Positions 13,043 to 48,011 of a stretch of DNA of 52,357 bases are shown piece after piece. Location: positions 1-52,357 of the forward strand of contig JBAXUW010000003.1 of assembly GCA_037129495.1 (NCBI GenBank), in the 5' to 3' direction. The position numbers were made by a program, and so were the translations under genes. The DNA is from Planctomycetota bacterium (GTDB taxonomy: Bacteria > Planctomycetota > Planctomycetia > Pirellulales > UBA1268). A model generated the notes under the pieces. The model worked only from the letters and a program-made list of their open reading frames with translations. It was not told the origin of the DNA and did no database searches. How positions within the stretch are numbered: position 1 is the stretch's first letter; each line of letters starts with the position of its first letter.

Positions 13043-13067
13043 GTGGGATAAGTTTTCCAACTTGTCC
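13043..13067 (+). repeat. REP-like motif
   Basis: GTGGGATAAGTTTTCCAACTTGTCC, in the divergent cytochrome/valS intergenic region. Confidence 0.85.
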
Positions 13068-13197
13068 AATGCGTTTTGCTGTGCAGTTCTGGCACTGCAC
13101 CGCCGGATTCCTCCGTGTACAGCCTGCCAGACGTCTATCTCCCCATGGCGGGAAACCATGGCTCTCCGCTAAAGTTTGGCGTTTTCCAGGAGACGCC

Positions 13198-31149: not shown

Positions 31150-33870
31150 TCACGGGCTGGGGAGTTCGAGACTGGCGTCGAGCACCTTCCGAATCCGGCC
31201 CTGCATTTCTCCCAGATGTGCCCGCGAATAATCGTCGAGCTTCACATCGTTCTTGGCCAGCAGTGTACCGATCCGGCCCTCGAGTGACCGCAACTGGGCC
31301 GCCGCGATCGCCTGAGCGTCGGGAGACCCACCGGCGGAGCCGATGGTCAGGGCAGATAGCCGTGAGACATAGAGCCGCTGCAGGCCGCGCCGGAGGCTGC
31401 CCACCGCCGGCTTGCGAACGGTGTAGTCGCCGGGACCGGTCGCATCGACCTCTGTCATAATCGACTTCGTGAGCCGATCGAGTAGCTCAGCCGTGGTGAA
31501 GGCGTCTTGGTCGGCGGGCACCTTCAGCTCGCTGTCGCGGATCCGCTCGAGCGTGAGCGGATTGAGTAACCGGCCGAGCACGCGGCCCTGCCACATGAGG
31601 ATCACATCGTGGATGGGATAGTCTTCCCGGTCGGGTGGATGACTGCCCCAGTGCATCCAGTTGGTGGCAACGAGCTGGTTGTAGAGCTCGGCCGAAAACG
31701 AAAAGGGCTGAGCGCTAAACATCTGTCGCTCAAGCAGCGCGAGCGCATCCCGCTGCTTCTGCGGCTCGACCACCTTGAAGGGCGCGGGGGCGCTGGCATC
31801 CCCCTTGTGGCTCCGCGATGTATAGAGGCCGCCAACGAGCCGCGAGGCCGTATACATTGACTGCCCGTGGGCTGACAGCAAGACGCCAAACGCCTGCCGC
31901 ACCCGCTCATAGCTCTGGTCCTTCGCCGTCAGGCGATCGGCGATCAGCGGCATCACCTGTGCCACCAGTTCGGCACGGCTCCGGGCGAATTCCAGCGGGT
32001 CATTGCCGAGATCAAACCGGTTGGAGAGCGGGTCGGGGTCGCCAAACTCGGTTTCCTCGTCGGTGGCGTAAGCGAGCACTGCCTCGCCGCTACGGGTCGC
32101 GATCTTCTCAAGTTCCGGGAGTTCTCCCTCCGGAGTACCGGCAGTGATCGGCTTGTACCCATACTCGATCGCCCACATGTCGTAGGGGCCGAGCTTTGCG
32201 GTGTAGTAGTCGCCCTGTGTCTTACCTTTCGGCACGATGTTGACCGGGATGTAGTCCATCACGCTCGTGCTCGCCCCCGACTGCGCGGTCTTGGTGACAT
32301 CATTGATATCAGCCAGCGACTTGAAGGCGCTGCCCTTGAAGTTGTGCCGCAGGCCGAGTGTATGGCCCACCTCGTGCATTGCCACAAGCTTGAGGCCTTG
32401 CATCACGAGCTTCTCCTTGTTGTCATCCGAGAGCCCGCCCTCGGCAGCGGCCGCCAGCGCCGTGGCCGCCAGGGCAGTCTCGCGGGCATGGCCGTCGAAG
32501 AGCGCGCAGGCGCCGCAGGAATGAGCCCCACCGTGGCCGTGACGCGCGCTCCCACGGGGTTCGCCCCCGGTCATTCGGGCCACGCTCTGCGGGGTAAACG
32601 TCTCGTATTCTGTCCGCCAAAATCGCAGAAAGTCGCCGTCGAAGATGATGTCTGCATCGAGAATCTGACCCGTCCGCGGGTTCACGCGGGAGGGACCCAT
32701 GGCGAAGCTTGCGCCTGCAGTGATCCAGCGAAACGTATTGTAGTTGACGTCTTCGGGATCCCAGTCGGTTACGTCCGGTTGCTGGCGGACCTCGATGGCG
32801 GTGGCGAAGCCGGCCTTCTCGAAGGCCTCGTTCCAGGCCTCGATCCCCGCGCGGATCGGCTGCCGATACTTAAACGGCACCGTCTTTTCGATCCAAAACA
32901 CGATCGGCTTCTTGGGCGGCGATATGGCCGCCGTGGGGTCGGACTTCTCGAGGTTCCAGCGATTGATGAAACGGACAAACCGGTCTTCATCCACGTTCTG
33001 CGAGAAGTCTTTGAGGGCAGTCACGAAGTAACCGACACGGTTATCGGCCAGCCGCGGCTTGTAGCTATTTTGCGGCAGCAGGCTCAGCGAATAGTGAATC
33101 ATCATCGTGGCCCCCCGCGAATCGGGTACTGTGTCGATGTCCTGCGTGCCGCTCGAGCCGTAGGTTGCGGCCACCTCAAGCTCCACGTTGTCTGGAAAAC
33201 CCTTGACGCGGGCCCAGGTCGATCGGTCGCGGGCAAATGAAAACCCGGGCAGCACCGTAGAAATCTGGGGTAGGTCGGTGAAGAAGATCGGCGCGAGGTC
33301 GATGACGTAGCCACCGGAGGGGCCGGTCGTTGCGATCGGCACGCTGAAAAGCACGCTGTCGGTGTAGGCAAGATCGACCGCCTTCTCCTCGGGGCTCCCC
33401 TTGTCGGCGAAGAATCGGACGTTCTTGCGGACAATTTGTATGTTGTCGTCGACCTTGCGAAACTGCCAGACCCAATCATCGCCGAAACCGAGGCTCATGC
33501 CGCCAAGCAGGAAGCGGTCACCGATCCCGCGGGCGATTGAGATCAGCACAAAAAATTCCTTGCCGAGCAGGGCGTCGGTGAGTTCCGCATAGACCTTGTC
33601 GTCCTTCCGCCAGAGCGGAATCAGGCCATTGATCTTGGTGGCGTCTTTGAGCAAGACGGCAAAGGCTGGTTTGCCGCCCTTGGATTCGGCCTTGGATTCG
33701 GCCTTGGACTCGGCTGGGGCGGCATCCTTAGCGGGGGCGGGCGACGTGGGCGCGGGCGCATCGGCAGTTGGTTCTTGGGCCGCGACCATGCCTGTTGTTA
33801 GAAGGGTCATCATGGTCATCATGGTCATCAGCAGAAATACAGCCACCACCATCGTCCGCCAGTTGTTCAT
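31150..33870 (-). CDS. Secreted zinc-dependent metalloprotease (DUF5117/DUF5118/DUF4953-type)
   Basis: HEVGHTLGLRHNF zincin motif with SVMDY Met-turn, PRLADNRVGYF, YDMWAIEYGY, signal peptide. Confidence 0.9.
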   Translation of the reverse strand: MNNWRTMVVAVFLLMTMMTMMTLLTTGMVAAQEPTADAPAPTSPAPAKDAAPAESKAESKAESKGGKPAFAVLLKDATKINGLIPLWRKDDKVYAELTDALLGKEFFVLISIARGIGDRFLLGGMSLGFGDDWVWQFRKVDDNIQIVRKNVRFFADKGSPEEKAVDLAYTDSVLFSVPIATTGPSGGYVIDLAPIFFTDLPQISTVLPGFSFARDRSTWARVKGFPDNVELEVAATYGSSGTQDIDTVPDSRGATMMIHYSLSLLPQNSYKPRLADNRVGYFVTALKDFSQNVDEDRFVRFINRWNLEKSDPTAAISPPKKPIVFWIEKTVPFKYRQPIRAGIEAWNEAFEKAGFATAIEVRQQPDVTDWDPEDVNYNTFRWITAGASFAMGPSRVNPRTGQILDADIIFDGDFLRFWRTEYETFTPQSVARMTGGEPRGSARHGHGGAHSCGACALFDGHARETALAATALAAAAEGGLSDDNKEKLVMQGLKLVAMHEVGHTLGLRHNFKGSAFKSLADINDVTKTAQSGASTSVMDYIPVNIVPKGKTQGDYYTAKLGPYDMWAIEYGYKPITAGTPEGELPELEKIATRSGEAVLAYATDEETEFGDPDPLSNRFDLGNDPLEFARSRAELVAQVMPLIADRLTAKDQSYERVRQAFGVLLSAHGQSMYTASRLVGGLYTSRSHKGDASAPAPFKVVEPQKQRDALALLERQMFSAQPFSFSAELYNQLVATNWMHWGSHPPDREDYPIHDVILMWQGRVLGRLLNPLTLERIRDSELKVPADQDAFTTAELLDRLTKSIMTEVDATGPGDYTVRKPAVGSLRRGLQRLYVSRLSALTIGSAGGSPDAQAIAAAQLRSLEGRIGTLLAKNDVKLDDYSRAHLGEMQGRIRKVLDASLELPSP
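33679..33714 (-). repeat. 12-bp in-frame tandem repeat x3 (AESK)
   Basis: CTTGGATTCGGC, CTTGGATTCGGC, CTTGGACTCGGC. Confidence 0.8.
33805..33830 (-). repeat. 9-bp tandem repeat x3 in the signal-peptide coding region (MMT)
   Basis: GGTCATCAT twice plus GGTCATCA. Confidence 0.8.
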
Positions 33871-33991
33871 CGCGCGTGCACTCCTGAAAGCGTTTCCCGG
33901 CCGTCGTTGACCGAGCCTTTTAAGGATATCATCGCCGCCCCCGGCCGACCAATTCTGGGCTCCTATCTTGCGTTCTGGGCACTGTTCGCCC

Positions 33992-34025
33992 GTGGGATAA
34001 GTTTTCTAACTTGTCCAATCCGTGC
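33992..34025 (+). repeat. REP-like motif, 34-bp direct repeat copy A
   Basis: GTGGGATAAGTTTTCTAACTTGTCCAATCCGTGC, identical to 34177-34210. Confidence 0.9.
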
Positions 34026-34050
34026 TGCTGCCCCCTTCCGGCACTGCGCC

Positions 34051-34164
34051 GCCGGGCCGGCAGAAGTCTCCTTCGCGGGGACTTTCGCCGTGGGTCTTGT
34101 TGGTTGTCCAGACCTTGGCAGGGCGAAATTCCTACGCTCGTCGAGCTTCAGCCGCTCCCGGCTC
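34051..34164 (+). repeat. 114-bp REP-associated module, copy 1
   Basis: Colinear and gap-free with 47846-47959; 100/114 identical by manual count. Confidence 0.9.
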
Positions 34165-34176
34165 CAGCTGTCTTTT

Positions 34177-34210
34177 GTGGGATAAGTTTTCTAACTTGTC
34201 CAATCCGTGC
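34177..34210 (+). repeat. REP-like motif, 34-bp direct repeat copy B
   Basis: Identical to 33992-34025. Confidence 0.9.
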
Positions 34211-34262
34211 CGCTACCCAATCCCGACTCCGTCTCTCGTGAGGAGACGAAGGAACTCTGCTC

Positions 34263-35363
34263 ATGCTCTCCCCTGACCCGCTCGTCATGCTCTGTCGCCG
34301 GTGGTGTGCCGAAGCGCCGGTTGAGATTCAGCCGCTGGGCATCCCCGGCTTTAGCGGGTCGCAGGTCTTTCGAATCGAGCGTTGCGATACCGGGGAGCAG
34401 TTTGTACTCAAGAGTTTCCCTGCCAGCGCGTCGGTTGAGCACGCTCTCTGGGTTCACCACCTGGTTCGACACCTACGCGCTGAAGGGATGCGCGAGGTGC
34501 CGGAGGTGATGGACCCGCTCGTGGGCGACACCGTCGTGGCCGATGCCAGCGGTGGGCTCTGGGAGTTGACCCGCCTGATGCCCGGCGTGGCAGTACCCCG
34601 CCCCACGCCGTTGCAGGCGGCCGCGGCGGCGGCGCGGCTGGCGCGATTCCATCTCGCCGCCTCCCGACTGCCTGCTGACCCATCGTGCGAAGGTTTTTCG
34701 CCGGGACTCAAGCGACGCATCGCCCAGGCCCGCGATCTTCGTGACCTGCCGTGGCGAGTGCGGCGAGGGAGGCTGTCGCGGACGTCTGATTCGCGCTTCC
34801 ACGAACAGTTCACGGCGGCGTTGACCGCCCGATTCGATGCCGCGATCGAGATCTTCGCTGCCGCTGGCGGCCCAGCGCTGATTGCCAATTTCGCCACCAT
34901 GAATCCGGTCTGCTCAGTCCTGCAGGCGGTGCTCCGTGATGTCTGGTGCGATCATGTCTTGTTTGCCGATTACGATGCGGCCGACGTGACTGCGATCATC
35001 GATCTGCACGCGGCGGGTGTCGACACGCCAGCTACCGACCTCGCCCGGCTCCTGGGCAGCTGGGCAGCCCCGGCGGGCCGGGAACAGCTCACGCTCTTCG
35101 ACCGGTGGCCGGAGGCGATCGTGGCCTACACTCAGATCCGGCCGCTCTCCGCCGAGGAACGCGGTCTGATACCGTTGCTCCACACCACTGGTGTCATCCT
35201 CGGTCTCGACAACTGGTTTCGCTGGACGCTCGAGGAACGTCGTGAATTTTCTGACGCCAGCCGGGTGCTGGCGCGGATCGACAGTCTGTTGCAGGAGTTG
35301 CAGCCGGCCGTCGCAAGCCTCTCGGCAGGAGCGAAGATGATCGGACTGAAGAATGTCGATTGA
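34263..35363 (+). CDS. Phosphotransferase (APH / type II homoserine kinase-like fold)
   Basis: GFSGSQVFRI, FVLK, WELTRLMPG, catalytic-loop-like LRDVWCDHVLF, AIIDL, DLARLLGSW. Confidence 0.75.
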   Translation: MLSPDPLVMLCRRWCAEAPVEIQPLGIPGFSGSQVFRIERCDTGEQFVLKSFPASASVEHALWVHHLVRHLRAEGMREVPEVMDPLVGDTVVADASGGLWELTRLMPGVAVPRPTPLQAAAAAARLARFHLAASRLPADPSCEGFSPGLKRRIAQARDLRDLPWRVRRGRLSRTSDSRFHEQFTAALTARFDAAIEIFAAAGGPALIANFATMNPVCSVLQAVLRDVWCDHVLFADYDAADVTAIIDLHAAGVDTPATDLARLLGSWAAPAGREQLTLFDRWPEAIVAYTQIRPLSAEERGLIPLLHTTGVILGLDNWFRWTLEERREFSDASRVLARIDSLLQELQPAVASLSAGAKMIGLKNVD

Positions 35364-47750: not shown

Positions 47751-47819
47751 GTGGGATAAGTTTTCCAACGTGTCGCTTTTGTCCCCCGTGGCATAAGTTT
47801 TTAGAGCTTTCCAATCCGT
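47751..47819 (+). repeat. Two tandem REP-like motifs
   Basis: GTGGGATAAGTTTTCCAACGTGTC (47751-47774) and GTGGCATAAGTTTTTAGAGCTTTCCAATCCGT (47788-47819). Confidence 0.82.
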
Positions 47820-47845
47820 TTTGCGACCCGCTGTGGTGCTGCAGC

Positions 47846-47959
47846 GCCGGGCCGAAAGAAGTCTCCTTCGCGGCGACTTTCGTCGTGGGGCTTGTGAGGA
47901 GATCAGACCTTGGCAGGGCGAAATTCCAACGCTCGTCGAGCTTCAGCCGTTCCTGGCTC
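47846..47959 (+). repeat. 114-bp REP-associated module, copy 2
   Basis: About 88% identical to 34051-34164, at a similar distance downstream of a REP copy ending CCAATCCGT. Confidence 0.9.
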
Positions 47960-48011
47960 TCCGGATTTCAGTGGGTTCGTTTTTACCTCTTAAAATCTGT
48001 GCCGTAGCTCT

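Follow-up and report, generated by a model that had tools for sequence, protein, structure and literature searches.

The segment at positions 33992-34210 is probably one unit of a BIME/NIME-like mosaic that is confined to a single genus and built of non-autonomous hairpin modules, in which units have multiplied by tandem duplication and some copies have been exapted, a reading to which we assign a probability of roughly 0.6. The window, by which we mean the whole 52,357-nt stretch of DNA that was analyzed, is contig C223 of a 496-contig MAG (3.8 Mb, 63% G+C, 92% complete), whose relatives carry the label uncultured freshwater Pirellulales. Two kinds of module make up the mosaic: a small REP-type hairpin that forms the junctions, and a palindromic rod of 113 to 117 nt with conserved ends and variable interiors.

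Results

Architecture of the composite unit

The unit follows the order REP, linker, rod, and tail over 182 to 185 nt (Table 1). As the initial annotation had reported, the 34-mers at 33992-34025 and 34177-34210 are identical (GTGGGATAAGTTTTCTAACTTGTCCAATCCGTGC), with identity stopping at both edges. They are copies of the REP-type hairpin that start neighboring units of a tandem mosaic, not a target duplication. The REP copy ending CCAATCCGT that had been described ahead of both cores is also present, at a distance of ~27 to 33 nt. Family-wide, this hairpin has the form GTGG followed by GGATAAGTT-TTCY-AACTTGTCC, with a stem of 9 bp and a tag that is GTGG, not GTAG. The stem contains a conserved T.G pair on the + strand, because of which that strand folds better, and a pyrimidine tract precedes REP copy 1. 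The genome holds 246 copies of the REP head at ≤4 mismatches, and 275 matches to a 15-mer at ≤1 mismatch; among the 246, compensatory stem changes recur in the form of A8>C (42 copies), T19>G (41 copies), and swaps at T10/A17. The element is an extragenic hairpin in the 20- to 40-nt class, with a conserved tetranucleotide end tag and a high copy number, the features by which REPs are defined. Its orientation lacks replication-related polarity, 129 of the 246 copies lying on the G-rich strand with no GC skew correlation. The linker of ~33 nt ends in GCGC directly before the first rod and in GCAC in most copies, and two variants of the tail, TCTCCGGATTCCC and TTCGTCTTTTTT, recur behind rods. The second unit, which begins at 34177, lacks a rod and continues into the APH-family gene's leader.

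The first copy (33992-34210) is located in the gap from which a Met-zincin gene and the APH-family gene diverge; it simply occupies this divergent promoter region, and we ascribe no role to it. The rod of the second copy sits where two genes converge, at 53 nt from the stop of an HrpB-like helicase gene. At the first locus, a separate hairpin (CGTCTC-TCGTGAG-GAGACG, 34230-34250) stands directly before a Shine-Dalgarno-like AAGGA, which sits 10 nt upstream of the APH-family ATG. On the Met-zincin side, contigs of two public freshwater metagenomes lack 9 nt at 33805 (within 33787-33827), a three-codon strain polymorphism in an MTMMTMMT repeat of the signal-peptide region. Public metagenome contigs stop at the repeat itself.

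Table 1. Features of the mosaic in the window and of the rod in rlmKL
Feature	Position	Strand	Description
Rod-less unit	13043..13111	+	REP and linker ending ...GCACTGCACCGCCGG, joined directly to ATTCC
REP-type hairpin, copy 1	33992..34016	+	GTGG tag and GGATAAGTT-TTCT-AACTTGTCC; predicted to fold
Linker with small hairpin	34017..34049	+	GTGC-TGCC...GGCA-CT-GCAC; predicted fold; conserved after most REPs and before most rods
Rod, subfamily A	34050..34162		113-nt imperfect palindrome; termini CGCCGGGCCGGCAGAAG ... CTTCAGCCGCTCCCGGC
Tail and pyrimidine tract	34163..34176	+	TCCAGCTGTCTTTT, leading into the next REP
REP hairpin, copy 2 (34177-34201), and first 9 nt of linker	34177..34210	+	Identical to 33992-34025
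APH-family gene	ATG at 34263		Preceded by the rod-less second unit
Two adjacent REPs before the second rod	47751..47812	+	47751-47775 with degenerate 3' arm; 47788-47812 variant GTGGCATAAGTTTTTAGAGCTTTCC
Second subfamily-A rod of the window	47845..47957		100/114 identical to the first over the span of the initial annotation
Tail, then decayed REP head	47958..47985	+	TCTCCGGATTTCA, then GTGGGTTCGTTTTTACC
rlmKL rod	L063:2600-2725 (G011 contig C2)		Same site in L067-L077 and L082

Fold and covariation of the rod

The alignment of the core at 34051-34164 with 47846-47959 is gap-free, with 100 of 114 positions identical as first reported, and the cluster of six among the 14 mismatches (34101-34108) falls at the tip of the palindrome, within a variable region at ~34093-34112. 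Of the two structures singled out in the core, a small stem-loop (AAGTCTCC-TTCGC-GGGGACTT) and a near-palindrome (GCTCGTCGAGC), both can indeed be drawn, but the stem-loop is superseded as the functional fold: minimum free energy and covariation both pair the segments of these two structures with each other over the length of the element, in one long rod. The terminal inverted repeats of the rod are CGCCGGG-CCGGCAGAAG at one end and, at the opposite end, its reverse complement AGCCGGGATCGGCTGAAG (also written CGCCGGGCCGGCAGAAG ... CTTCAGCCGATCCCGGC as a pair), and they are common to all subfamilies. About 17 nt of these termini and a purine-rich internal loop, reading GACGA/GAAG on the minus strand, are conserved genus-wide, and they are kept in sequence, beyond what pairing alone accounts for. 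In subfamily A a second helix reads UUUCGCC/GGCGAAA.

Covariation was tested on an alignment of 51 sequences from five subfamilies, over the outer helices and the core of the inner helix. Paired cells amounted to 95.1%, versus 88.3% in shuffles and 28 to 51% when the partners were slid, and 10 of the 20 rod pairs had changed on both sides, a count that none of 500 shuffles equaled. Covariation, which had been named as a check on the core, is thus found, and it belongs to the rod fold. The independent events are few because most double changes separate subfamilies, and within subfamilies 97 to 99% of stem cells are paired, with little variation. The minus strand is the better folder in A2, A3, A4, and B, though not in A; for subfamily B this holds in 17 of 17 copies, by a mean of 13.5 kcal/mol. 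One-sided stem changes, read on the minus strand, comprise 52 that are G.U-compatible versus 18 A.C. Consistent with the earlier remark that the core resembled no known RNA family, Rfam gave no match at the gathering score across the whole window and none up to E = 10 for 33900-34300.

Copy number, arrays, and distribution

The case in which the core would exist in just two copies, which the initial annotation had named as a refutation, does not hold: nhmmer returned 63 matches in this genome, far more than chance would give, of which ~40 are full length and many are cut by contig ends, and we put the number of rods here at about 60 to 100. The accompanying proposal of a REP-plus-module unit of about 175 to 185 bp that moves as a non-autonomous element survives in part. 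A composite of 182 to 185 nt does recur and is non-coding and non-autonomous, but the conserved dispersing unit is the palindromic rod of 113 to 117 nt, which in several species stands without any REP. Tandem arrays of identical REP-linker-rod-tail units are found on contigs C195 and C376, and identical 81-nt units on C98 hold just the first bases of a rod. The periods of such units are 182 to 185, 119 to 125, and 81 to 83 nt, which correspond to REP plus rod A, REP plus a three-hairpin module (module D), and truncated forms; units that lack a rod measure 81 to 83 nt, and their joints lie at the short direct repeats GCCG(G/A) or CCGGC. The array units, of 81 to 185 nt, contain no ORFs. Distinct modules in variable order, joined by a small hairpin in intergenic DNA, are the hallmarks of a mosaic repeat.

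Within the genus, 19 of 20 species contain the core, as against 0 of 21 genomes outside it, and the terminus motif is present in 56 copies here versus 0 to 3 in each of 150 other Pirellulales genomes. There are at least five rod subfamilies, whose stems differ yet stay complementary, all of 113 to 117 nt; A, A2, A3, A4, B, and C share termini and this length around different interiors. Several species carry 15 to 26 or more copies of subfamily B, which is absent here. In type C, as found in this genome, the rod termini CGCCGGGCCGGCAGAAGT...GCCGATCCCGGC enclose three small hairpins in place of the rod over 116 to 117 nt (examples are C13:1375(-), C46:30181(-), C90:21470(+), and C113:14571(+)). 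The three-hairpin module also stands alone between REPs, as the 119- to 125-nt units, and its copies show covarying stems. In its exact sequence the REP is limited to this species, and REP-linker-rod-tail arrays of the same layout in sister species carry their own REP variant, GTGGCGGCAAGTTTTTAACTTGTCC.

Rods in this genome lie mostly near gene 3' ends (10 in convergent gaps, 3 in divergent gaps). Copies of the rod turn up in coding sequence as well as in 5' and 3' regions. Between tandem gene pairs the element is co-oriented in 7 cases and opposed in 8, showing no strand preference. At the orthologous Met-zincin/APH locus (window 33871-34262), six species have a subfamily-B rod directly upstream of the APH-family ATG and no REP (L009, L010, L013, L016, L017, and L020); in one of them, G008 (L017), two subfamily-B rods stand in tandem. 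No base-precise empty site was found at this locus among 14 species, the intergenic DNA being too diverged.

A rod within a coding sequence

In at least 10 species, the gene for an RlmKL-like protein carries a 116-nt rod of subfamily A4 in the linker that joins its two methyltransferase domains; the rod is in frame and encodes RDRRKLDEHGSFRPEEE...GERSPRGDFCRPGD, with the minus strand of the rod as the mRNA sense. The linker length is divisible by three in every case. In the rod arms 27 of 30 third codon positions are invariant, versus 81 of 280 in the flanking domains (Fisher p = 6e-11), and the rod tip varies freely. Among the matches listed, each genome has one A4-type match, always at rlmKL, so that gene conversion from paralogues is unlikely, and the simplest reading of these sequences is that selection acts on the nucleotides of the rlmKL rod. 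In four species (L080, L075, L073, and L078, from G002, G001, G004, and G015), the palindrome at this site is shorter and has another interior between the same termini, GACGGGATCGG...CCGNCCCGNCGAC, which suggests that the interior was replaced between conserved ends. The rlmKL site of the genome that contains the window has neither rod nor palindrome. In L082 (G010 contig C27), a long run of 15-nt tandem repeats directly follows the rod; these repeats encode DNPSD/DNLPS/DDLPS pentapeptides and roughly double the linker, to 528 nt, in frame.

Search for a mobilizing partner

A Y1 transposase (PF01797) had no match in this 92%-complete genome. Y1 genes are present in 13 of 20 sister species, and we rejected them as partners since the repeat on their flanks is another one, AAAAGGGGAC..., while neither this REP nor the rods border them. 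Three of these loci (L089, L092, and L093, from G018, G017, and G007) are RAYT/TIRYT-like Y1 genes of ~220 aa flanked by inverted AAAAGGGGACGCAGCTC / AAAAGGGGACATTCTGC, and motifs like these are scattered through the present genome, which itself has no Y1 gene. As an Ssn-like partner we considered the one small GIY-YIG gene (C320:1515-1730) and set it aside, there being no REP or rod match on C320. Inverted REP pairs bracketed nothing but ordinary genes and a single IS4-like fragment. In this genome, no two rod termini enclose an insert the size of an IS, the sole pairing at 400 to 5,000 nt joining two separate elements; draft MAGs often lose IS copies. A search for target-site duplications at all boundary offsets, with k = 3 to 6, in 40 copies that have no upstream REP detected none, the best combination giving matches in 5 of 40 versus 1.2 expected. 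The attC cores R''/R' (RYYYAAC / GTTRRRY), read directly from the sequence, are found in neither the REP nor the rod termini.

Discussion

Mosaic hairpin repeats such as REP/BIME, NIME, ERIC, and RPE are common in bacteria, and for most of them the means of spread and the function are unclear. Full-text searches for planctomycete REPs and related repeat names yielded no description of the rod/REP family reported here. This family of uncultured lake planctomycetes is uncatalogued, yet apart from the conserved in-gene copy it belongs to an ordinary type of bacterial repeat, and that frozen copy in rlmKL is the most surprising part of our results.

The species-specific REP-type hairpin serves as the junction module, with the linker hairpin and the rod behind it. 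We propose that the rods are non-autonomous and may have spread, or had their interiors exchanged between termini, through a putative enzyme that recognizes a folded single strand; we infer dispersal by such an agent because the ends are conserved, the interiors variable, the bursts lineage specific, and the contexts varied. Replication slippage or unequal recombination, acting between REPs and short direct repeats, would then multiply and shorten the composite units in place. Such local gain and loss of sequence, by duplication and deletion, is well supported by the identical tandem units and rod-less joints. Most copies would be selfish or neutral, and some may have been exapted, to judge from the nucleotide-level selection on the rlmKL copy. 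Counting against this proposal is the conservation of stems within subfamilies and in rlmKL, which exceeds what the neutral decay of selfish DNA would leave.

Each of several known systems shares part of this organization. Like the BIMEs formed by REP/PU clusters in enterobacteria, the repeats consist of a tagged short hairpin in hundreds of copies, arranged with other motifs in intergenic mosaics, mostly behind genes and in species-specific copy number. BIMEs differ in their alternating REP orientation, their short linker motifs, and their RAYT transposases, which are themselves REP-flanked, whereas the REPs described here run in direct orientation and are partnered by a palindrome of ~115 nt, and no REP-flanked RAYT was found. 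Comparable too are the Neisseria NIME and dRS3-NTS repeats, which likewise form arrays of ~50- to 150-bp units bracketed by a small, directly oriented hairpin with a non-palindromic tag (PMC11893778), and in which the ssnA gene is flanked by its own repeats (PMC11893778). The sequences of the two systems are unrelated, the sole small GIY-YIG gene here is not repeat-flanked, and the present repeats are not known to be linked to transformation. The rods themselves recall ERIC/IRU, Correia, palindromic MITE, and RPE sequences, which are dispersed imperfect palindromes of ~100 to 150 nt that form one long hairpin and fall into subfamilies with lineage bursts; in the case of the RPE (Rickettsia palindromic elements), a copy can even lie in frame inside a protein-coding gene. 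Unlike these, the rods show no duplication of a TA or other target and no parent IS in this genome, they conserve both internal loop and length, and their in-gene copy is under nucleotide-level selection and is not decaying. More distantly, the rods resemble integron attC sites, with which they share a structure more recognizable than the sequence, built of a base helix, an unpaired spacer, a second helix, and a variable end, and an asymmetry between strands in folding. They lack the RYYYAAC/GTTRRRY core of attC, have longer stems and a fixed length of 113 to 117 nt, and carry no ORF cassettes.

In another account of the family, the rods would be a new class of functional, multi-copy, structured nucleic-acid modules, and not parasites, in which the closing helix and GACGA/GAAG loop dock a host factor, the intervening helices covary, and the interiors are swappable between termini (A, B, C, and the short rlmKL form), with copies kept by selection through the radiation of the genus, as in the rlmKL linker; we consider this unlikely. 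A further reading, about which we are just as doubtful, would make the rods functional structured RNAs, or cis-acting mRNA elements, of the minus strand, with the purine-rich GACGA/GAAG loop docking a protein or RNase that controls mRNA stability, processing, or translation. The minus strand is indeed the better folder in four of five subfamilies, its one-sided stem changes are mostly compatible with G.U pairing, covariation backs the rod fold, and the internal loop and the length of 113 to 117 nt are conserved; the rlmKL copy, moreover, is mRNA-sense on the minus strand and subject to nucleotide-level selection. Among RNA runs, none contained the neighboring gene. A 241-nt wetland metatranscriptome contig (run X21) carries rod-like sequence, aligned to window 34058-34145 over 88 nt with 9 differences, a weak sign that could represent either a transcribed rod of a relative or DNA carry-over. 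The genomic distribution of the rods is harder to reconcile with an RNA, however, as rods in tandem pairs are not biased in orientation with respect to transcription, copies lie in coding sequence no less than in 5' and 3' regions, and copy number and subfamily differ widely between species. Furthermore, the REP stem, with T.G on the + strand, favors the opposite strand, subfamily A, to which the rods of the window belong, has no strand asymmetry, and Rfam has no match.

Orientation that is independent of transcription would fit REP and rod as host DNA-level sites, where a protein binds or cuts folded ssDNA or a cruciform (such as an Ssn-like site-specific ssDNA nuclease, a nucleoid protein, or a recombination factor), in likeness to NTS/dRS3 with SsnA in Neisseria or to BIMEs with IHF and gyrase. 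The REP is an oriented tag plus hairpin, as are NTS and GTAG REPs (PMC11893778; PMC3733652), the rod termini and internal loop are sequence-conserved across the genus, and the constraint on the rlmKL copy is at the nucleotide level. Since these repeats flank no gene for a candidate protein, and since the REPs lack polarity relative to the G-rich strand or GC skew, we regard such sites as quite unlikely. A cassette system, with REPs as integron/attC-like recombination sites between which rod cargo is excised as a circle and re-inserted, is in our view very improbable. It would account for the direct REPs that bracket each module, for the REP-to-REP slot shared by rod A, module D, and truncated forms, and for the different interiors between the same termini; the R-box (GTT/AAC) features of attC are missing from the REP, however, several species have rods unaccompanied by a REP, and the identity of the tandem units in arrays is what plain duplication would produce.

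The mosaic of non-autonomous hairpin modules, which we favor, separates its parts cleanly, the junction hairpin being species-specific and the rod conserved genus-wide, and it accommodates several unrelated interiors between the same termini at a fixed length. For those who work with freshwater Pirellulales, these repeats explain many of the contig breaks in MAGs and generate spurious ORFs. The dated in-gene copy in rlmKL, with its frozen synonymous sites, is direct evidence that nucleotide-level selection can act on such a repeat.
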